Positions 5,283 to 21,501 of a stretch of 64,000 nucleotides of DNA are shown in pieces. Made by a program: the position numbers and the translations under genes. The notes beneath the pieces were generated by a model. The model made no database searches. It had not been told where the DNA came from and was given only the letters and a program-made list of their open reading frames with translations. The stretch is from Escherichia coli (GTDB taxonomy: Bacteria > Pseudomonadota > Gammaproteobacteria > Enterobacterales > Enterobacteriaceae), in the NCBI RefSeq assembly GCF_009931435.1, contig NZ_CP043414.1. One strand, given 5' to 3'. Numbering within the stretch: the first letter of the stretch is position 1; each line of letters opens with the position of its first letter.

Positions 5283-6392
5283 ATGACGCAGAATATCTAT
5301 CAACAACTGGGGCTGAAACAAGTGATTAACGCTTGCGGTAAGATGACGATTCTCGGCGTCTCCAGTGTCGCGCCGGAGGTGATGCAGGCCACCGCGCGTG
5401 CGGCATCCTCTTTCGTGGAGATTGATCAGCTGGTGGACAAAACCGGCGAGCTGGTCTCTCGCTTTACCGGGGCGGAGGATAGCTACGTTACCTCCTGCGC
5501 CTCGGCAGGGATCGCCATCGCTATCGCCGCCGCCATTACCCGCGGCGACAAGGCCCGGGTGGCGCTCATGCCGGATAGCTCCGGCATGGCCAATGAAGTG
5601 GTGATGCTGCGCGGCCATAACGTCGATTACGGCGCATCGATCCTCAGCGCGATCCGCTTAGGCGGCGGGCGCGTGGTGGAGGTGGGGTCAAGTAACCTGG
5701 CGGCTCTCTGGCAGCTGGAGAGTGCCATTACCGACGCGACCGCCGCGCTGCTGTATGTGAAGTCGCATCACTGCGTGCAGAAGGGGATGTTGAACATCGA
5801 GGACTTCGCCCAAGTCGCGCAGATGCACAACCTGCCGTTGATTGTCGATGCCGCCGCCGAAGAGGATTTACGTGCCTGGGTGGTGAGCGGAGCGGATATG
5901 GTGGTCTACAGCGGCGCAAAAGCCTTTAACGCGCCTACCTCCGGGTTTATCACTGGTAAAAAAATCTGGATTGCAGCCTGTAAAGCGCAGCATTACGGCA
6001 TTGCCAGGGCGATGAAAATCGGCAAGGAGAACATGGTTGGGCTGGTTTACGCGCTGGAGAATTATCACCAGGGGCAGGCAATCATCACCGCGGAACAGCT
6101 CCAGCCAGTGGTTGAAGCGATTTCTGCGATTCACGGGTTAACGGCTGATATTGAGCAGGATGAAGCCGGGCGTGCAATCTGGCGTATTCGTATTCGGGTA
6201 AATGCGCAAGAATTTGGAGTTGCCGCTCGCGTCGTCGAAGCGCAACTGCGTGGTGGCGATATCGCGATTTATACACGGCGGTATAACCTCCACCAGGGCG
6301 TTTTTAGCCTTGATCCGCGTACGGTGGCGGATGGGGAGATGGCGCTTATCGTGGCGCGACTGAAGGAGATTGCAGATCATGCAAAAGATTAA
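5283..6392 (+). CDS. dgaE: SelA-like PLP-dependent enzyme (D-glucosaminate-6-phosphate ammonia-lyase-like)
   Basis: 369 aa; SGAKAF-type PLP-lysine region; position after EIID matches the Salmonella dga operon order. Confidence 0.7.
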   Translation: MTQNIYQQLGLKQVINACGKMTILGVSSVAPEVMQATARAASSFVEIDQLVDKTGELVSRFTGAEDSYVTSCASAGIAIAIAAAITRGDKARVALMPDSSGMANEVVMLRGHNVDYGASILSAIRLGGGRVVEVGSSNLAALWQLESAITDATAALLYVKSHHCVQKGMLNIEDFAQVAQMHNLPLIVDAAAEEDLRAWVVSGADMVVYSGAKAFNAPTSGFITGKKIWIAACKAQHYGIARAMKIGKENMVGLVYALENYHQGQAIITAEQLQPVVEAISAIHGLTADIEQDEAGRAIWRIRIRVNAQEFGVAARVVEAQLRGGDIAIYTRRYNLHQGVFSLDPRTVADGEMALIVARLKEIADHAKD

Positions 6393-7122
6393 TTTCTATC
6401 ATAATCGTGTGGCAATTAATGTGCTGGCGAAAGATATCGCCAATGCCCGTGAAATCTATGACGCCGCCGAAGGCCACGCGGTGATTGGCGTGCTTTCCGC
6501 GCAGTTCTCCTCGGTGGATGAGGGGATCCAGGAAGTTAAACGTTGGATGGCGGAAATACCGTCCATTTCAGTAGGTCTGGGGGCGGGTGACCCGGCGCAG
6601 TATTACAAAGCTGCGATGATTGCGGCGCAGATTCATCCAGCACACGTTAACCAGACCTTTACCGGTTGTGGTTTCGCGGCAGGCGCGCTTGCGACGACGG
6701 GCGGTGAGCAGACCCATGTCAACGCGCTGGTTAGCCCGACGGGAACGCCGGGCGAAGTGCTGATTTCCACTGGCGTTAGCAGCAGCCAGGGTACGCCTGC
6801 CCGCGTATCCTGCGATACGGCAGTGCGAATGATGCTAGATATGGGCGCACACGCGGCGAAGTTCTTTCCGATGGGCGGCGAGAAGTCGCTTCCGGAGCTA
6901 TACGCGCTGGCGACCACGGCGGCGCGCAATGGTATGACGCTGATTGAGCCAACCGGCGGGATTGATTTGGATAACTTCAGTGTGATTCTAAAAACTTGTC
7001 TGGAGGCGGGTGTGCCGCGCATTATGCCGCATGTTTACAGCTCGATTATAGACCCTGATACGGGATATACCCGACCGGATGATGTAGCCGTTTTGCTGAA
7101 TAAAGTGAAATCACTACTCTGA
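6379..7122 (+). CDS. dgaF: KDPG-aldolase-family protein
   Basis: AKFFPMGG and EPTGGI motifs resemble Eda FKFFPA and CPTGGI; ATG 6379 preceded by GAAGGAG (ORF track starts at TTG 6370). Confidence 0.7.
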   Translation: MQKINFYHNRVAINVLAKDIANAREIYDAAEGHAVIGVLSAQFSSVDEGIQEVKRWMAEIPSISVGLGAGDPAQYYKAAMIAAQIHPAHVNQTFTGCGFAAGALATTGGEQTHVNALVSPTGTPGEVLISTGVSSSQGTPARVSCDTAVRMMLDMGAHAAKFFPMGGEKSLPELYALATTAARNGMTLIEPTGGIDLDNFSVILKTCLEAGVPRIMPHVYSSIIDPDTGYTRPDDVAVLLNKVKSLL

Positions 7123-16352: not shown

Positions 16353-17062
16353 AAATCGAACTGACGGTGAATGGATTGAAGGTACAGGCGCAGTACCCGA
16401 ACGAAGAGATTGAAAATGTGCATAAACCGTTGCTGCGTATGCTGGCAGCCTTACAGACGGTAAATCCGCAGCGGCGTACCGTGGTTTTTCTTTGCGCTCC
16501 GCCGGGGACGGGTAAATCTACCCTAACCACTTTCTGGGAATATCTCGCGCAACAAGACCCGGAACTACCCGCTATTCAGACGCTGCCGATGGATGGTTTT
16601 CACCATTACAATAGCTGGCTGGATGCGCATCAATTGCGCCCCTTTAAAGGCGCACCAGAGACATTCGATGTGGCAAAACTGGCGGAAAATCTGCGCCAGG
16701 TAATGGAAGGGGATTGTACGTGGCCGCAGTACGATCGACAAAAGCATGATCCTGTTGAAGATGCGTTGCACGTTACCGCACCACTCGTCATCGTCGAAGG
16801 AAACTGGTTGTTGCTGGATGACGAGAAGTGGCGCCAGCTTGCGCAATTTTGTGATTTCTCGATCTTTATCAACGCGCCAGCTACTGCGTTGCGGGAACGA
16901 CTGGTGGGGCGCAAGCTGGCGGGAGGGTTATCGCTGGCAGACGCAGAAGCCTTTTATGACCGTACCGATGGGCCGAATGTTCGCCGGGTGCTGGAAGAGA
17001 GTCTGCCTGCAAATTTGACCTTAATGATGACCGCTACGGGTGAATATCGTCTGGTGGATTAA
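16349..17062 (+). CDS. yggC: P-loop nucleoside/sugar kinase-family protein
   Basis: 237 aa; GTG start; Walker A PPGTGKST. Confidence 0.85.
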   Translation: MKIELTVNGLKVQAQYPNEEIENVHKPLLRMLAALQTVNPQRRTVVFLCAPPGTGKSTLTTFWEYLAQQDPELPAIQTLPMDGFHHYNSWLDAHQLRPFKGAPETFDVAKLAENLRQVMEGDCTWPQYDRQKHDPVEDALHVTAPLVIVEGNWLLLDDEKWRQLAQFCDFSIFINAPATALRERLVGRKLAGGLSLADAEAFYDRTDGPNVRRVLEESLPANLTLMMTATGEYRLVD

Positions 17063-17711
17063 CGTTCCTGATTACACCATCTTCCAGTCGCACCACACGA
17101 GAGAAATGACGCCGGGTAAATGCGGCGTCATGACTGATTGCTACGACGCTCGTGCCTCGCTGGCGGCACTTTTCCAGCCAGCTTTCAAACACGCTCATCC
17201 AATTTTCGTCAAAATCCCGACTCGGCTCGTCCAGCAGCAATAGCGGCGGAGAGAGTGCTTCCAGGCAGGCGACGGCGACCATCCGTCGCTGCGCACTATG
17301 CAGATCTAACGGATGCGCGCTGGCAGTGTCTGCTAACTGACAGCATTGCAGGGCAGCATTGGTACGTTGAGTGATTTCATCCGCCAGGCATTTTTGCAGT
17401 TTCAAACCAAATGCGATCTCGTCAGCGACGGTGCTGTGAAAAAGCTGGTTTTCCGCTTCCTGAAACAGTACGCCAATCTTTGCTGCACGTTGGCGGTTTT
17501 TCAGGTTTTTCATCGCCTGTTGTTGCAGCATAACCGTACCGGCTGTGGGCGTAAGAAGACCTGCCATTACTCGTAACAGCGTCGATTTTCCCGCGCCATT
17601 GTCGCCGGTCAGCGCCAACCATTCACCTTGTTTGAGTTGCAGAGAAATGTCGCAAAGACAATCCGTTGCCGCGCCAGGCCAGCGATAAGACATCTGATTT
17701 AACGTTAACAT
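17034..17711 (-). CDS. ABC/ECF transporter ATPase subunit with degenerate signature motif
   Basis: Walker A GDNGAGKST; signature position reads LHSAQ instead of LSGGQ; Walker B LLLLDEPS; ATG 17711 (ORF track starts at GTG 17744); 3' end overlaps yggC by 29 bp. Confidence 0.8.
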   Translation of the reverse strand: MLTLNQMSYRWPGAATDCLCDISLQLKQGEWLALTGDNGAGKSTLLRVMAGLLTPTAGTVMLQQQAMKNLKNRQRAAKIGVLFQEAENQLFHSTVADEIAFGLKLQKCLADEITQRTNAALQCCQLADTASAHPLDLHSAQRRMVAVACLEALSPPLLLLDEPSRDFDENWMSVFESWLEKCRQRGTSVVAISHDAAFTRRHFSRVVRLEDGVIRNVNPPDDIHP

Positions 17712-18382
17712 AGTGGCTGGAGCGCTCCGTTTTGCAATTGCCACGCTTGCTGGCAGTAGTTCAGGAAAGGTGTGCGATGACGTTCAAAAAGAATAATCAG
17801 CGAACCACGTTCAAACGCCCAGTGTTGTAAGCGCTGCAACAGCATTTCGCTGGCCTGCGGCGTCAGGCGACTAAAGGCTTCATCAAGAATTAATAGTTTT
17901 GGCTGCATCGCGATGGCGCAGGCGATGACCACGCGCTGTGTCTCTCCACCGGAGAGTGTTGCCGGGTGACGATGGCGCAACGGCTGGCACTCGGTCAGAG
18001 TCAGGGCAGCATCAATCCGCGCCATAATCTCCTCTTCAGCAAGACACAGATTTTCTGGCCCAAAGGCAACTTCTTCTTCCACGCTAAAGGTACAGCCGGA
18101 GAGCTGCAAATAGGGCGATTGCTGAACGAGCTGGATGGTGGCGGATTGTTCATTAAGCGGGAGATACCCAATGGGCGTACCGAGAAGCGTCCCCGTGCCG
18201 GTTATCTCTCCTGGCAGAAAGTCCGGATACCAGCCCGCCATCAGTTGCGCCAGCGTACTTTTGCCACTGCCGTTGTCACCAAAGATGGCGACTATCCCCG
18301 GTTTGACATAGTGAAAGTCATAACAGAACGGAGGGTGCGTTGAGTGTGTCGGGCAATAGCGAAACTGTTCTAACGTAACCAT
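17705..18382 (-). CDS. ABC/ECF transporter ATPase subunit (near-canonical)
   Basis: Walker A GDNGSGKST, signature LSGGETQR, Walker B LLILDEAF; start either ATG 18382 or GTG 18388, both overlapping the upstream T gene. Confidence 0.8.
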   Translation of the reverse strand: MVTLEQFRYCPTHSTHPPFCYDFHYVKPGIVAIFGDNGSGKSTLAQLMAGWYPDFLPGEITGTGTLLGTPIGYLPLNEQSATIQLVQQSPYLQLSGCTFSVEEEVAFGPENLCLAEEEIMARIDAALTLTECQPLRHRHPATLSGGETQRVVIACAIAMQPKLLILDEAFSRLTPQASEMLLQRLQHWAFERGSLIILFERHRTPFLNYCQQAWQLQNGALQPLC

Positions 18383-19077
18383 ATCCACGCTCCGAATTCT
18401 GCCAGCATCAGCAAGATCATGGCGTAACGTGCCACTTTTTCCAGGTTACTGTCAGGCGGTGCCCATAACGTAGTGCGCCGGTTGTGGATCCGAAATGCCC
18501 GCATATCCAGCGCCGCACCACGGATAGCCAGATCGTTTAGCGCATTGTGTGTTAGCGGAATAATTAGCGCGGGTATAGCACGTAAACGCTGATACCAGCC
18601 CTCATCCAGCGGCACCCCACGGGCGCGCTGCGCTTCATGAATAATCGCTAATTGCCGTTTTAACTGCTCAACGACCAACAAAGGCCCAGCGAACAGATAA
18701 GCGACGCCCGGCGGCAGGCGAGAAGCAAACAAAGCGCGGATAAAACGTTGCACTGGGACGAATTGCATCCACAACTGCGAGGTTGAAACAATCGCCAGAA
18801 TCCGCAACCAGAGCGTAATAGCATGCGTCCACCGTTCTGGCGAGCGTGGCGTGCCGCTTAGCCATTCTGTCAGCCAGCCACCGTGTACCAGCCACAGTCC
18901 AGCCCCCAGCGAGAACATCAGCCAGACAACATATTTTACCCGCCGCCGCGTGGCCTTTAGCGCAATAAGGCAGAAAAAGGTCGCCGCGCTATAGAATGGC
19001 AGTATTGTCTGTGTGGGCAGGATAAGCGTGGTGCAGGCCGCCAGCGCCCACAGCGTTAGGGATGTAAACGGATGCAT
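18370..19077 (-). CDS. ECF transporter transmembrane (T/CbiQ-family) component
   Basis: 235 aa polytopic membrane protein with Ala-Arg-Gly-type coupling motifs (QRARGVP, AIRGAALD); ATG directly follows the upstream TAA. Confidence 0.75.
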   Translation of the reverse strand: MHPFTSLTLWALAACTTLILPTQTILPFYSAATFFCLIALKATRRRVKYVVWLMFSLGAGLWLVHGGWLTEWLSGTPRSPERWTHAITLWLRILAIVSTSQLWMQFVPVQRFIRALFASRLPPGVAYLFAGPLLVVEQLKRQLAIIHEAQRARGVPLDEGWYQRLRAIPALIIPLTHNALNDLAIRGAALDMRAFRIHNRRTTLWAPPDSNLEKVARYAMILLMLAEFGAWIWLR

Positions 19078-19656
19078 TTAGCGCACGGCAGCCATTGCCG
19101 GAAAATGGCGCGTGGTGCGAATCGGCAGCTGACGCAGTAAAAGCCAGACAATCACCGCTGTAAGAATTTTATCGACCAGGTTTGCGCCTATCACCGTAAT
19201 CGCCACCGACTCCACCAGGTTTTGCCCCATAGAGTGCATCCAGGCAACGAACAAATCGGCTCCGCTACCGGTGACACCGCCGAACAGCGCAGTACGCAGC
19301 GGTACAGCGACGACCGTTACTGCAAGCGTAATAATCACGCCGCTGACAACGACTTTTGGCAGGGTGCGAAACCAACCCGCTCGCGCCAGCCAACCGGCGA
19401 CCAGGCCAATAACCATCGCCACGGGGGCAAAGGCGGCGGCGATCGGGTCGGTGAGCAATCCCCAGAGTAAATTGGTCAGTAAGCCGGTCAGCATCCCGAT
19501 CACCGGACCAAGCAGTACCGCGCTAATAAGTGTGCCGATGGAGTCGAGAAATATAGGTAATTTGACCATGCTGGCCAGTTGCCCGCCAATCATATTGATG
19601 GCGATAGAGATAACAATCAACACCAGTGCTTGACTGGAAAAGTGGCGACGCGCCAT
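19078..19656 (-). CDS. ECF transporter substrate-capture (S) component, substrate unknown
   Basis: 192 aa from MARRHFSS (ATG 19656, GAGAGG upstream); about 6 predicted TM segments; AVLLGPVIG motif as in S components; the ORF-track N-terminal extension would overlap the upstream gene. Confidence 0.7.
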   Translation of the reverse strand: MARRHFSSQALVLIVISIAINMIGGQLASMVKLPIFLDSIGTLISAVLLGPVIGMLTGLLTNLLWGLLTDPIAAAFAPVAMVIGLVAGWLARAGWFRTLPKVVVSGVIITLAVTVVAVPLRTALFGGVTGSGADLFVAWMHSMGQNLVESVAITVIGANLVDKILTAVIVWLLLRQLPIRTTRHFPAMAAVR

Positions 19657-19678
19657 AAGAAAACCTCTCTGAAAGTAG

Positions 19679-20110
19679 TTATTTAACGGGGGAAATATGC
19701 AATTCGTCGTAACCAGAAAGCGCGCAAGGTTGGCGGCTAAACGCCAGCTCCTCAAGGCAGCCGATCACCAGTTCAAGCGTGGTCCGCACGGTACAGCCGG
19801 GCATCATATGACCGCCAAGCATCGTGCCGTGTGGATCGGAAACGCAGAGATGAAGATGTTCACCACTCTGTTCCAGTGTGCCGTTCAATGCGATGACTTC
19901 GAACTTACCGCTTAGTAGGGCCGTGTTTTCTTGCCCGGCATAGCGTAAGGCGACGTCAGTCAGACTGCCGGTACAACCTGCAATCCACGCGGCGTGGAGT
20001 TGTTGTTGCTGCGCGAAGGCGCGTAATTGGGAGAGAACTTCCTGCCCTGGGAGCAGGCGCAGCGCGTAAAAGCGTGCGGAGGAAGAATATGGGTAGGGCA
20101 ATGTCATCAT
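19679..20110 (-). CDS. PPC/DUF296-domain protein (predicted DNA-binding)
   Basis: 143 aa; first gene of the operon, GGAG upstream of ATGATG; my recollection is that this resembles bacterial PCC-domain proteins. Confidence 0.6.
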   Translation of the reverse strand: MMTLPYPYSSSARFYALRLLPGQEVLSQLRAFAQQQQLHAAWIAGCTGSLTDVALRYAGQENTALLSGKFEVIALNGTLEQSGEHLHLCVSDPHGTMLGGHMMPGCTVRTTLELVIGCLEELAFSRQPCALSGYDELHISPVK

Positions 20111-20238
20111 TGGAGTACTCCGAAACTCGGACGTATTGCGGATAATATCGACGCTGCATCAGTCATATTCTGATATAAGTCAGGGTTTGTGACGGCACAA
20201 CGAAAAGATTTTGCTACGCTTATTCGTGATTCTGCAAA

Positions 20239-20254
20239 GTGGAATAAATTCCAC
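20239..20254. promoter_or_regulatory. candidate operator: perfect palindrome GTGGAAT-AA-ATTCCAC
   Basis: 7-bp perfect inverted arms in the divergent region; an extra ATTCCAC half-site at 20323-20329; second palindrome TTGTG-N4-CACAA at 20187-20200. Confidence 0.4.
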
Positions 20255-20481
20255 AGGGGCGGGGATGAAAACGTGACGTAAGTCAGATAATTGTCTTCTT
20301 TGACTGGACAATCATTCCTTTTATTCCACGTTTCGCTTATCCTAGCTGAAGCGTTTCAGTCGATTAAATGTTCGACAATTAACCAATCAGTCGCAGTTTG
20401 CGACAGGTAAGGTTTCCCCGGACGATTTGCTGGATTACTCTGTCTGGCAAATTTGCTCAGGGAAAACCTTGCAGGAGATCT

Positions 20482-21501
20482 ATGACCGTACGCGTAGCGA
20501 TAAATGGCTTCGGTCGCATCGGGCGTAATGTGGTTCGTGCTTTGTATGAATCCGGACGCCGGGCGGAAATTACCGTGGTGGCAATCAACGAACTGGCGGA
20601 TGCTGCGGGCATGGCGCATTTGTTGAAATATGACACCAGTCATGGCCGTTTTGCATGGGAAGTACGACAGGAACGCGATCAACTTTTTGTTGGTGATGAC
20701 GCCATCCGCGTATTGCATGAACGTTCACTGCAATCGCTCCCATGGCGTGAACTGGGCGTCGATGTGGTTCTCGACTGCACCGGCGTATATGGCTCCCGCG
20801 AGCATGGCGAAGCACATATTGCCGCCGGGGCCAAAAAAGTGCTCTTTTCACATCCTGGCAGTAACGATCTCGATGCGACCGTTGTTTACGGCGTCAATCA
20901 GGATCAACTTCGTGCGGAACACCGCATCGTTTCTAACGCTTCCTGTACCACGAATTGCATAATTCCCGTCATCAAATTGTTAGATGATGCGTACGGTATT
21001 GAGTCCGGCACTGTGACCACAATTCACTCCGCCATGCACGATCAACAGGTTATTGATGCATACCATCCTGACCTGCGTCGCACCCGGGCAGCCAGCCAGT
21101 CGATCATTCCGGTCGATACTAAACTGGCCGCCGGTATCACACGATTTTTTCCGCAATTTAACGATCGCTTTGAAGCGATTGCGGTACGTGTGCCAACCAT
21201 AAATGTGACGGCAATCGATTTAAGCGTGACGGTGAAGAAACCTGTAAAAGCCAATGAAGTCAACCTGTTGCTGCAAAAAGCAGCACAAGGTGCATTTCAT
21301 GGTATAGTTGACTATACGGAATTGCCGTTGGTCTCTGTAGATTTTAACCACGATCCGCACAGTGCCATTGTCGATGGCACCCAAACCCGGGTCAGTGGCG
21401 CACACCTGATCAAAACGTTGGTCTGGTGCGATAACGAATGGGGCTTTGCTAACCGAATGCTCGACACGACGTTAGCTATGGCTACTGTTGCTTTCAGGTA
21501 A
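20482..21501 (+). CDS. epd: D-erythrose-4-phosphate dehydrogenase
   Basis: 339 aa starting [15 protein letters not shown]; AGGAG upstream; ORF-track start at TTG 20398 is over-extended. Confidence 0.95.

Follow-up and report, generated by a model that had tools for sequence, protein, structure and literature searches.

The window analysed here is a stretch of 64,000 nucleotides of Escherichia coli DNA, in which the interval between yggC and epd is occupied by genes on the minus strand. Positions 17034-20110 were confirmed to hold five intact, tightly packed genes, encoding a PPC-domain protein, the S and T components of an ECF-type transporter and two ABC ATPases (Table 1). All five open reading frames proposed by an earlier reading of the letters alone, without database searches (the sequence-only reading), were recovered with the same coordinates and sizes. 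The gene spacing is operon-like: 22 nt separate the PPC and S genes, S and T abut, and overlaps of 13 nt and 7 nt join T to A1 and A1 to A2, respectively. At its 3' end, A2 shares 29 nt with the convergent yggC.

Table 1. Features of the yggC-epd interval in the window; gene coordinates use PGAP-style starts.
Feature	Positions	Strand	Details
Left edge of strain-variable segment, last ~85 nt of yggC	16980-17062	+	Allele strongly diverged from K-12
ABC ATPase A2, 225 aa	17034-17711	-	
ABC ATPase A1, 225 aa	17705-18382	-	
ECF T (scaffold) component, 235 aa, divergent CbiQ/EcfT family	18370-19077	-	PF02361 and PGAP product name
ECF S (substrate-capture) component, 192 aa	19078-19656	-	
lmiA (z4267 orthologue), PPC/DUF296 protein, 143 aa, first operon gene	19679-20110	-	
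lmiA 5' UTR, 90 nt	20111-20200	-	TSS as published for O157 (PMC7667037)
lmiA sigma-70 promoter	20208-20237	-	-35 TTGCAG 20232-20237; -10 TAGCAAAAT 20208-20216
Right edge of strain-variable segment, about 20238-20241	20238-20254	.	
Upstream regulatory site	20264-20287	-	PhoP footprint and CRP-like element

Profile searches of the kind suggested by the sequence-only reading, run against Pfam and NCBIfam, agree with the PPC and ECF gene calls. The PPC protein matched the Pfam profile PF03479 (E 2.7e-27), and the S component matched both the Pfam profile PF12822 (E 1.8e-8) and the NCBIfam model NF045596 (E 8.8e-40, under the model's cutoff). The match of T to CbiQ PF02361 was weak (E 2.2e-4), and for both ATPases the best models were ECF_ATPase_1/2 (E 1e-35 to 1e-44, under the equivalog cutoffs).

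In O157, lmiA is transcribed from 90 nt upstream by a sigma-70 promoter that is activated by PhoP at low Mg2+ (PMC7667037). Both published O157 promoter elements, the -35 and the -10, are identical in the window, and the published PhoP footprint CTTACGTCACGTTTTCAGC (20264-20282) matches at 18/19 nt; a conserved CRP-like element, TCTGA-N6-TCACG (20272-20287), overlaps this footprint, and this element is retained in K-12. Within the 5' UTR lie a palindrome, CTGACTTATATCAG (20170-20183), and, over the Shine-Dalgarno sequence (20118-20131), a hairpin; these leader features show conservation and compensatory changes within Enterobacteriaceae. A search of the leader for known riboswitches, also proposed earlier, returned no Rfam match, and neither the window nor 36 related loci yielded a preQ1 riboswitch or one of any other class.

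O-island 119 and the ancestry of the operon

The locus is already known as O-island 119 of EHEC O157:H7 (z4267-z4271): strain EDL933 carries the same five genes at the same yggC-epd locus, with proteins 94-99% identical to those of the window. Its PPC gene, lmiA, was described in papers of 2020 and 2024 as a regulator that is activated by PhoP and acts on LEE1/ler (PMC7667037, Liu et al. mBio 2020) and gadA/gadBC (PMC11657066, Gut Microbes 2024), so that the earlier description of the PPC family as having no established function is outdated. The transporter genes are uncharacterised, and for them the expectation of a cluster conserved but uncharacterised rather than new holds. In those papers z4268 and z4269 are named hypothetical. 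The papers also describe a horizontally acquired EHEC island with lmiA as a stand-alone regulator; here, in contrast, the unit looks ancestral, being found in Salmonella and many genera, and lmiA belongs to a PPC-ECF module conserved across phyla.

At least 80% of the segment is present in 3,319 of 5,426 complete E. coli genomes. The sequence-only reading proposed an indel relative to K-12, and this is real: in the K-12 derivative DH5alpha a spacer of 284 nt lies between yggC and epd. A short K-12-type segment has replaced the five-gene module in the approximately 39% of complete genomes that lack it, K-12 among them, and the right edge of the variable segment falls within a 16-bp palindrome, GTGGAATTTATTCCAC (20239-20254), of which K-12 retains a degraded copy.

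The presence of a similar cluster beside epd in Salmonella was also confirmed. In that genus epd and tktA flank the cluster, and cmt/ygg genes are missing from the site. The proteins of the window, all encoded by intact ORFs, are 75-92% identical to their Salmonella counterparts. Altogether, epd adjoins the cluster in 17 Enterobacteriaceae species, Salmonella included, and in Buttiauxella the five-gene unit occupies a different genomic site; the cmt-ygg sugar-phosphate neighbourhood, from which a functional hint had been taken, is therefore incidental. The epd-side position in Salmonella and relatives, the unremarkable G+C content of the segment and the intact ORFs suggest that the cluster is an ancestral enterobacterial operon of the order lmiA-ecfS-ecfT-ecfA1-ecfA2. 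An in-frame read-through between the PPC and S genes was observed in one Citrobacter genome.

Strand and order (PPC-S-T-A-A') are kept in every locus with an S identity of at least 49%, including those of Morganellaceae, Hafnia, Budvicia, Aeromonas, Wohlfahrtiimonas and Laribacter, as well as Kaistia/Mesorhizobium, Desulfobulbaceae, Synergistaceae and Anaerolineae. The same order is seen in alpha- and beta-proteobacteria and in Chloroflexi; at least five phyla share the conserved five-gene module, and the PPC-ECF link is deep. It is hardly credible that the operon is a decaying, non-functional remnant whose loss K-12 has completed: from E. coli to Chloroflexi its five ORFs remain intact and do not vary in length, the consensus ATP site has kept its catalytic motifs, and O157 has an active, regulated promoter (PMC7667037). 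Decay would nevertheless be in line with the share of complete E. coli genomes without the operon, with a deletion chimera, S(1-60)/A1(149-225), present in some assemblies, and with the O157 transporter deletions, which gave no adherence or LEE-expression phenotype, the only ones assayed.

A dedicated ECF importer

The Pfam and NCBIfam matches of S, T, A1 and A2, the x-Arg-Gly motifs of T, the occurrence of S-T fusions and the lack of a binding-protein gene show that the operon specifies a complete ECF-type ABC importer of the dedicated (group I) kind, without a periplasmic binding protein. The initial proposal of a PPC gene joined to a dedicated ECF-type importer is supported. The S component belongs to the FolT/QrtT-type Pfam family PF12822, is related to the 'CD3073 family', has at least five hydrophobic segments and counts S-T fusion proteins among its relatives. 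In T, two x-Arg-Gly motifs can be read from the sequence at residues 152-154 and 185-187, and neither the ORF list nor the annotation contains a periplasmic binding-protein gene in the five-gene cluster. By profile, the solved structures closest to S are the folate S components 5D0Y (E 1e-10) and 5D3M (E 9e-9), whose ligand is a pterin. The FolT folate transporter (PDB 5D0Y, 5D3M, 4HUQ) is alike in ECF architecture; however, it uses a shared module whereas the window's operon is of the dedicated group I, its model TIGR04518 matches S weakly (19 bits vs a cutoff of 60), and the operon's gene neighbours are unrelated to folate.

A1 has canonical Walker A, Walker B and LSGGE signature motifs, with an H-loop His that is not conserved (FERH in the window, FERN or AEHK in relatives), and A2 has canonical Walker A, Walker B and H-loop (SHD) motifs with a degenerate signature (LHSAQ). 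These motifs predict an A1-A2 dimer with one consensus and one degenerate ATP site, an asymmetry kept across 59 A1 and 78 A2 sequences. Hydrolysis at the site formed by the A2 Walker motifs and the A1 signature would drive import.

An importer of cobalt or nickel, following the old 'cobalt transport' annotation and with the PPC protein STM3071 as its regulator, is very improbable. This role of STM3071 is the premise of a 2018 thesis cited in PMC11481890; moreover, T and the ATPases match models named after CbiQ and CbiO, and the three-histidine (His3) site of the PPC protein could bind Co or Ni. Those names, however, apply to ECF T and A components in general, and S is not CbiM/NikM-like but a PF12822 protein nearest to folate-type S components. 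Neither a CbiN or NikN gene nor a B12 riboswitch occurs in the window locus, and its relatives have nucleoside and queuosine genes as neighbours instead of metal genes.

Substrate hints from related loci

The hint as to substrate was drawn from loci whose S is 39-47% identical to that of the window; these proteins are 45-58% identical to the S of PPC-first Chloroflexi, and all match the same NCBIfam model at 119-145 bits. An IUNH-type nucleoside hydrolase directly precedes S in 19 of these loci, a ribokinase is present in 7 (over the curated cutoff) and the queuosine-precursor transporter QPTR in 4 (over cutoff), the latter from two or three Anaerolineales lineages. Two related Ardenticatenia MAGs contribute 2 loci in which tgt directly precedes S (472-480 bits vs a cutoff of 307). 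Locus L069 has a uridine-phosphorylase-like gene and a CytR/RbsR-like (LacI-type) regulator, and lacks PPC. The gene order is QPTR followed by PPC-hydrolase-S-T-A-A' in L063 and PPC-hydrolase-S in L077. In nine Chloroflexi loci PPC lies downstream of A2 and is read from the other strand: in six of them the two genes converge directly, and in L071, L079 and L084 a single MFS-type gene stands between them. Neither the window nor any PPC-first locus showed a queuosine or nucleoside gene linked directly to the operon; the association comes from relatives at 39-47% S identity and from few independent lineages.

Because relatives of S adjoin genes for nucleoside hydrolase, ribokinase, QPTR and tgt, the evidence points to a ribonucleoside or 7-deazapurine as substrate, not to a sugar-phosphate cofactor or cobalt. 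In place of the hint taken from the sugar-phosphate cluster, the surroundings of the relatives suggest salvage of the nucleoside/queuosine type. Our best single guess is the queuosine family (queuosine, queuine or preQ1), with ordinary ribonucleosides as the fallback. A precedent is found in C. difficile, in the operon queK (nucleoside hydrolase)-qrtT (ECF S, PF12822)-queL (PMC11477304, PMC11130926). QrtT and the window's S are of the same family, a likeness at the Pfam-family level, and, as qrtT follows queK, relatives of the window's S directly follow a nucleoside hydrolase, some of them beside tgt or QPTR. The two systems differ in that QrtT shares the housekeeping EcfAA'T module whereas the window's S has its own T, A and A', and in that the preQ1 riboswitch and radical-SAM QueL of C. 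difficile are both missing from the window, which has a PPC protein instead. E. coli synthesizes queuosine de novo and has its own nucleoside transporters, and its need for the importer is therefore uncertain.

It is doubtful that the transporter is a general high-affinity ribonucleoside scavenger serving catabolism of base and ribose, with no special link to queuosine and with PPC as an accessory of nucleoside breakdown. The hydrolase, the ribokinase and the L069 genes are indeed far commoner than tgt and QPTR, and L044 has a second ABC gene set directly upstream (tandem ATPase, two permeases and a signal-peptide protein, with no profile annotation). On the other hand, ECF transporters typically scavenge micronutrients at low capacity, no hydrolase or kinase gene lies in the operon of the PPC-first clade, E. 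coli included, adjacency to tgt and QPTR is specific to queuosine, and E. coli already possesses NupC, NupG and XapB.

The role of LmiA

The searches show that a small cytoplasmic PPC-fold protein with an invariant His3 site always accompanies the importer. In the ECF-linked PPC family 21 positions are invariant, including R56, E71, T110, T111, E113, R126, Y134 and E136 and the histidines H85, H87 and H101; in LmiA, His85/His87/His101 and further polar residues are thus invariant. The family is acidic (pI 4.9-6.9, median 5.6, none over 6.9), and no AT-hook is present in the LmiA sequence. Beyond its own family, the fold of LmiA comes closest to that of Zn-dependent acetolactate decarboxylases; the significant structural matches are to PPC proteins and to Zn enzymes, not to DNA-binding proteins. 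A paralogue in V. cholerae, VCA0587, shares a transcript with a TetR regulator, an arrangement usual for enzyme genes. From the invariant polar and His set, the acidic pI, the lack of an AT-hook and the VCA0587-TetR pairing, we read LmiA as the probable ligand-binding or catalytic partner of the importer, a reading that the published DNA binding fits poorly.

LmiA may instead be a DNA-binding transcription factor of an unusual PPC type that ancestrally controlled the adjacent ECF operon, perhaps sensing the transported compound at the His3 pocket, with an E. coli regulon grown to LEE1 and gadA/gadBC and an unrelated micronutrient as substrate; we consider this possible, though rather unlikely. 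Specific DNA binding was documented in two papers by EMSA, DNase I footprinting of a 17-bp motif and motif mutants (PMC7667037, PMC11657066), together with ChIP-qPCR enrichment (9.9-fold at LEE1, 2.25- and 4.68-fold at the gad promoters), lux reporters and complementation. In O157, deletion of z4268-z4271 reproduced neither the adherence nor the LEE-expression phenotype of lmiA (PMC7667037), the only phenotypes assayed for the transporter genes; LmiA therefore has an activity that does not depend on the transporter, which favours a regulator. The separate opposite-strand PPC gene in nine Chloroflexi loci and the LacI-type regulator replacing PPC in L069 fit a regulator equally well, and the conserved palindromes in the lmiA leader and promoter could be operators. 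However, the binding data come from one laboratory, with footprinting at 2.5 and 5.0 uM and modest gad enrichment, and the published motif is absent from the window, the lmiA promoter included. The acidity of the whole family, the enzyme-like polar and metal set of invariant residues, the structural neighbours, the missing AT-hook and the Vibrio paralogue's own TetR regulator also argue against it. LmiA has in common with plant AHL (AT-hook motif nuclear-localized) proteins the PPC/DUF296 domain PF03479 and the core G-[RK]-F-E-[IV]-[IL], but the plant proteins have an AT-hook. It is this hook, not the PPC domain, that contacts DNA, and the 'DNA-binding' label of PF03479 is inherited from them.

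We favour, with a probability of roughly 0.4, the reading of O-island 119 as an ancestral ECF importer for a purine-like nucleoside or base micronutrient, with LmiA as its ligand-processing partner and regulation as secondary. S would capture the micronutrient, a purine-like ribonucleoside or base, outside the cell and then topple it across the membrane, and LmiA would bind and most likely chemically process the imported compound at a predicted Zn(His)3 pocket. In relatives, the LmiA-type function may work alongside the nucleoside hydrolase. The changes in LEE and gad transcription reported for LmiA in EHEC would be secondary, lineage-specific or moonlighting; BirA and NadR are precedents for such dual roles in other micronutrient salvage systems. 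We know of no PPC protein with known catalytic activity. Acetolactate decarboxylase is about twice the size of the PPC protein, a single domain of ~140 aa, and the equivalence of the metal ligands is putative; sequence identity between PPC and the Zn(His)3 enzymes alpha-acetolactate decarboxylase and PTD012 (PDB 4BT2, 1XV2, 6INB, 1XCR) is 13-18%.

Anatomy of the cluster and its identity with O-island 119

The cluster is filled by five minus-strand genes, which in the ORF listing encode a 143-aa protein (PPC), a 192-aa membrane protein (S), a 235-aa protein (T) and two ATPases of about 225 aa each (A1 and A2). With PGAP starts as in an O157 genome, 22 nt separate PPC and S, the S and T genes are directly adjacent, and there are overlaps of 13 nt (T/A1), 7 nt (A1/A2) and 29 nt (3' end of A2 with the convergent yggC); the G+C content of the cluster, 0.53-0.59, lies slightly above that of the flanks. 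The first protein matches the PPC profile PF03479 (E = 2.7e-27), fold and profile both being present. The S protein, with at least five hydrophobic segments, matches PF12822 (E = 1.8e-8) and NF045596, the "CD3073 family putative ECF S component" (8.8e-40; 136 bits, below the model cutoff of 180), while T matches the CbiQ family PF02361 weakly (E = 2.2e-4) and carries two x-Arg-Gly motifs (ARG at residues 152-154, IRG at 185-187), which we take to be the coupling signatures that define EcfT. The best NCBIfam matches of A1 and A2 are ECF_ATPase_1/2, below the equivalog cutoffs, with Walker A and B motifs in both. No solute-binding protein gene was found in or adjoining the cluster, either in the ORF listing or in the O157 annotation. 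With S, T and ATPase components present and a binding protein absent, the cluster is predicted to encode a dedicated (group I) ECF-type ABC importer. The sequence-only reading had thus described the five-gene anatomy correctly, and the profile searches that it proposed placed S, T and both ATPases in ECF families. Two variations on this anatomy were seen among S-family representatives (P0234 and P0153, P0170, P0171, P0137): one E. coli-like cluster is a chimera of S(1-60) and A1(149-225) that reflects an internal operon deletion, and in many distant relatives S is fused to T or repeated in tandem (S-S).

The two ATPases differ in a regular way across the family (window 17034-18382 and homologues in loci L003-L084). 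In A1 Walker A, Walker B and the LSGG[EQ] signature are kept and the H-loop histidine is replaced (FER[NHSR] or AEHK), while A2 keeps Walker A, Walker B and [ST]HD but has LH[ST]AQ, LHAGQ or LSPTW in place of LSGGQ. In a head-to-tail dimer, the site formed by the A1 Walker motifs and the A2 signature would be degenerate and the site formed by the A2 Walker motifs and the A1 signature would be consensus, predicting an ECF ATPase dimer with one non-catalytic and one catalytic ATP site.

The segment corresponds to O-island 119 of EHEC O157:H7 EDL933, z4267-z4271 (Liu et al. 2020, PMC7667037), whose first gene, lmiA, is transcribed from a start 90 nt upstream of its ATG, with a -35 element TTGCAG, a -10 element TAGCAAAAT and a PhoP footprint CTTACGTCACGTTTTCAGC (PMC7667037). 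The PPC protein of the window is 94% identical to O157 LmiA over 143 aa and its gene lies between yggC and epd, the -35 and -10 elements are identical to those of O157, and the PhoP footprint matches at 18 of 19 nt; identity, synteny and promoter architecture agree in identifying it as the lmiA orthologue. The PGAP product names are PPC domain-containing DNA-binding protein, ECF S component, T component and ABC ATP-binding protein (twice), and structural genomics has provided the structure of the Salmonella LmiA orthologue (2HX0/2NMU). The finding is therefore real but already named and annotated. What is new here is how deeply the PPC-ECF unit is conserved, that its relatives occur in nucleoside and queuosine contexts, that PPC resembles an enzyme in character and that the ATP sites are asymmetric; from sequence and context we infer, in addition, a substrate and a PPC chemistry.

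Features of the cluster and its flanks in the window (positions in nt)
Feature	Position	Location	Basis
Five-gene cluster, minus strand	17034-20110	between yggC and epd	ORF listing
ATG of S gene	19656	cluster	ORF listing
Left boundary of the indel	~16980	inside yggC	alignments with K-12 and O157
Right boundary of the indel	~20238-20241	within a 16-bp palindrome	alignments with K-12 and O157
Diverged end of yggC (last ~85 nt)	16980-17062	yggC	
CRP-like/PhoP region retained in K-12	20264-20287		
Cra/FruR-like box CTGAAACGCTTCAG (candidate)	20346-20359	upstream of epd	spacer alignment
CRP-like TCTGA-N6-TCAC(A/G)	20272-20287	coincides with published PhoP footprint	spacer alignment
Palindrome CTGATTTATATCAG	20170-20183	+18 to +31 of lmiA leader	spacer alignment
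Hairpin covering Shine-Dalgarno	20118-20131	lmiA 5' UTR	spacer alignment

Conservation of the PPC-transporter unit and the K-12 indel

In a megablast search the whole segment was found in 3,319 of 5,426 complete E. coli genomes (~61%), so that a full ECF importer is carried by most complete genomes of the species, as well as by Salmonella and many other enteric genera. It is present in O157:H7 and ATCC 25922 and absent from the K-12 derivative DH5alpha, confirming that the indel relative to K-12, proposed in the sequence-only reading, is real; ECF core components have also been stated to be absent from K-12 (PMC5372724). Experiments on transport and on queuosine salvage use K-12 as their reference strain, yet it lacks this importer. 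From the positions of the boundaries, K-12 keeps the PhoP-footprint region and lacks the lmiA core promoter and the five genes. The last part of yggC shows roughly 60% identity to K-12, against about 95% for the rest of the region, and because of this strong divergence the K-12 state looks like the substitution of a short diverged segment, not like a clean excision or simple deletion. The C-terminus of YggC accordingly differs in cluster-positive strains.

The five window proteins were compared with all loci by tblastn. In every locus whose S component is at least 49% identical to that of the window, the genes occur on one strand in the same order, PPC-S-T-A-A'. This set includes, within Enterobacteriaceae, Escherichia, Salmonella, Citrobacter, Kluyvera, Klebsiella, Atlantibacter and others; Proteus, Providencia, Morganella, Hafnia, Budvicia, Aeromonas and Wohlfahrtiimonas; Laribacter and another betaproteobacterium, Kaistia and Mesorhizobium; and Desulfobulbaceae, Synergistaceae and several Anaerolineae and Ardenticatenaceae. 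Genes outside the five are unrelated between the lineages of this PPC-first clade. The PPC gene is best regarded as belonging to the transporter, in a PPC-ECF unit that is deeply conserved.

The surroundings of the unit vary even among close relatives. In an S-component alignment scan with one genome per GTDB species, which yielded 80 loci, epd adjoins the module in 17 Enterobacteriaceae loci, and the other side of the enterobacterial module is occupied by the yggC-yggD-yggF-yggP-cmtA block in 7 loci and by tktA in 11. Synteny comparison located the Salmonella cluster that the sequence-only reading had placed beside epd: there the five genes are flanked by epd and tktA and the cmt/ygg genes are absent, while in Buttiauxella they adjoin an autotransporter. 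Since Salmonella and Buttiauxella lack that neighbourhood, the adjacency of the cmt-ygg genes is incidental, one of two arrangements, and we rejected it as a clue to function. The sequence-only reading was therefore right in part, in its anatomy, its K-12 indel and its Salmonella counterpart, and its hint from the sugar-phosphate neighbourhood did not hold. We read the five-gene unit as ancestral rather than as an acquisition of EHEC. This bears on published work, as EHEC virulence models include lmiA as a regulator gained by horizontal transfer; an ancient PPC-ECF unit whose relatives sit among nucleoside and queuosine salvage genes means that lmiA phenotypes need to be reread.

Fusions of PPC to S were considered as Rosetta-stone evidence and rejected, with none among 150 S cluster representatives, in which S-T fusions and S-S tandems are common. 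A single read-through was seen in Citrobacter sp. R56 (L057, 6551-7579), where no stop codon separates PPC from S and a single PPC-S frame of 342 codons runs from the PPC ATG; the ORF as called has 383 aa, with a start upstream at 6428. This frame may represent either a natural fusion or damage to the copy. The PPC of L057 has a histidine at the position of motif residue G133. In seven Chloroflexi loci, a protein of about 115 aa similar to the C-terminal half of the selenium-metabolism protein YedF (TIGR03527; 106 bits, cutoff 110) is encoded either upstream of PPC (L043, at 6211-6561, L053, L054, L055 and L058) or downstream of A2 (L051 and L059).

Substrate of the importer and role of LmiA

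Clues to the substrate come from S relatives 39-47% identical to that of the window, found in Chloroflexi, one Bacillota MAG and one Kaistia. At 19 of these loci an IUNH-type nucleoside hydrolase gene, sometimes in two copies, lies directly upstream of S, its products matching the RihA, UriH and RihC models at about 1e-60 to 1e-82; a ribokinase is encoded in 7 of them (TIGR02152, 357 bits, above cutoff), and L069 also has a CytR/RbsR-like regulator and a uridine-phosphorylase-like gene. Queuosine-related genes occur as well, with a queuosine-precursor transporter of the QPTR/YhhQ family in 4 loci (TIGR00697; 97-115 bits, cutoff 51) and a tRNA-guanine(34) transglycosylase gene (tgt) immediately before S in L064 and L067 (TIGR00430; 472-480 bits, cutoff 307). 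PPC also accompanies these relatives: it is part of the cluster in L063 (QPTR / PPC-hydrolase-S-T-A-A') and L077 (PPC-hydrolase-S), and at nine loci it is found downstream of the ATPases in the opposite orientation; in six it directly converges with them, and in L071, L079 and L084 a single MFS-type gene intervenes. The S components of PPC-first Chloroflexi are 45-58% identical to those linked to hydrolase, QPTR or tgt and 49-56% identical to that of the window. As PPC-first and hydrolase-, QPTR- or tgt-linked S components all match the same NCBIfam model (119-145 bits), we treat the window S and these relatives as one family.

In C. difficile, an operon joins the queuosine hydrolase gene queK, the ECF S-component gene qrtT (PF12822) and queL (PMC11477304, PMC11130926). 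The closest solved S components by profile are folate-binding FolT proteins, which bind a pterin. From the gene contexts of the relatives, the queK-qrtT-queL precedent and the likeness to FolT, we infer that the substrate is a purine-like ribonucleoside or base, the queuosine family being the best single guess. Against this, a queuosine-type substrate is linked to the window through homology of moderate identity in few independent lineages. What the window S has in common with QrtT (e.g. C. difficile CD1683) is the shared, non-specific PF12822 family alone; of the queuosine genes tgt, queK-type hydrolase, QPTR and queL, the first three cluster with S in its 39-47% relatives, and neither the window nor any PPC-first locus shows such clustering. 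Furthermore, many qrtT/queT genes have a preQ1 riboswitch upstream, whereas the window leader and the related loci scanned yielded none. The riboswitch search suggested in the sequence-only reading gave, with Rfam at E ≤ 1 over window 16500-21000, no match except a chance IRES, and 36 related loci (a set that leaves out L048-L059) contained no known leader riboswitch, preQ1 included, at the gathering threshold. An importer of cobalt or nickel (CbiMNQO/NikMNQO) was rejected on the S family (PF12822, not CbiM) and on gene context; no CbiN-like small ORF appears in the ORF listing, and window 16500-21000 holds no cobalamin riboswitch. In the tgt products of L064 (5116-6966) and L067 (5697-6956), GGSLGRT presumably stands where the Zymomonas TGT has GGLAVGE (alignment by eye), which would put a glycine at the position of Val233, the residue that limits the enzyme to preQ1.

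The PPC protein itself was examined in 59 ECF-linked sequences, with a curated alignment of 34. Twenty-one positions are invariant, including R18, G48, S49, R56, E71, H85, H87, H101, T110, T111, E113, R126, Y134 and E136. Acetolactate decarboxylase binds zinc through an H-x-H ... H triad. All ECF-linked PPC proteins are acidic (median pI 5.6, maximum 6.9), that of the window having a pI of 5.8 and a charge of -4, and the AlphaFold model is confident (pLDDT 95.7). In contrast to the plant AHL proteins, from which PF03479 takes its "DNA-binding" name, the 143-aa window protein has no AT-hook, with neither an RGR nor a GRP motif. In V. cholerae the paralogue VCA0587 has the invariant residues as well, and there is a 4-nt overlap between its gene and a TetR-family gene (L085, 6408-7393), an arrangement typical of an enzyme under the control of a regulator, not of a second regulator. 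VCA0587 is the closest PPC paralogue with a solved structure; it is divergent from two glutathione S-transferase genes and has no ECF genes nearby. Contexts of VCA0587-like paralogues are heterogeneous and lack ECF genes, the Vibrio TetR pairing being the only informative one.

Based on the invariant residues, the acidity, the lack of an AT-hook, the structure model and the TetR-paired paralogue, we favour for LmiA a role in ligand binding or catalysis that is linked to the compound taken up. [quoted passage not shown] The LEE lies outside the window, and the LEE1 motif does not occur in its 64 kb at up to 3 mismatches, the lmiA promoter included. Deletions of z4268-z4271 had no adherence phenotype (PMC7667037), and since loss of the transporter genes does not reproduce the effect of deleting lmiA, LmiA has some transporter-independent activity. 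In other micronutrient salvage systems, BirA and NadR are dual enzyme/regulators; a dual LmiA of this kind would reconcile both lines of evidence.

Taken one step further, O-island 119 would be a queuosine/queuine salvage module missing from K-12, composed of the ECF importer and a hitherto unrecognised Zn-dependent salvage enzyme, LmiA; we consider this unlikely as a whole, at a probability of roughly 15%. In the gut, compounds of the queuosine family would enter through the importer, and LmiA might, for instance, convert queuine or queuosine back to preQ1 by a non-radical-SAM route, in a role analogous to QueL or QueK. The published effects of lmiA on virulence, acid resistance and biofilm would then be consequences or moonlighting rather than dedicated virulence regulation. 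No link between DUF296 and queuosine was found in the searchable literature; if true, the salvage reading would give the bacterial PPC/DUF296 family its first biochemical function. Both the substrate of this orphan ECF family and the biochemical role of bacterial PPC/DUF296 proteins are now open to cheap testing.

Regulatory region between lmiA and epd

The epd-lmiA spacer of the window was aligned with those of 15 other Enterobacteriaceae genomes, and short palindromes were read by eye. A sigma-70 and terminator scan returned nothing above shuffled expectation, and it also missed the published lmiA promoter. In the leader, pairing of the hairpin over the Shine-Dalgarno sequence is kept through compensatory changes in Superficieibacter and Pseudescherichia; this hairpin and the palindrome CTGACTTATATCAG may be operator or translational-control elements. 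Both are confined to Enterobacteriaceae sensu stricto, so a deeply conserved leader RNA was rejected and no family-wide riboswitch is indicated. In Kaistia terrae (L046, 5225-5269), a guanidine-II riboswitch above the gathering threshold lies about 1.2 kb upstream of PPC and is probably unrelated to the module.

On the epd side, the Cra-like box hardly varies among Enterobacteriaceae; three genomes have a C/G variant at one position. The CRP-like element is conserved in the 15 other Enterobacteriaceae genomes, reading TCACG in the window and TCACA in most other genera. Together with the PhoP region it is retained in K-12, though K-12 lacks lmiA, and it may be part of the promoter region of the divergent epd.
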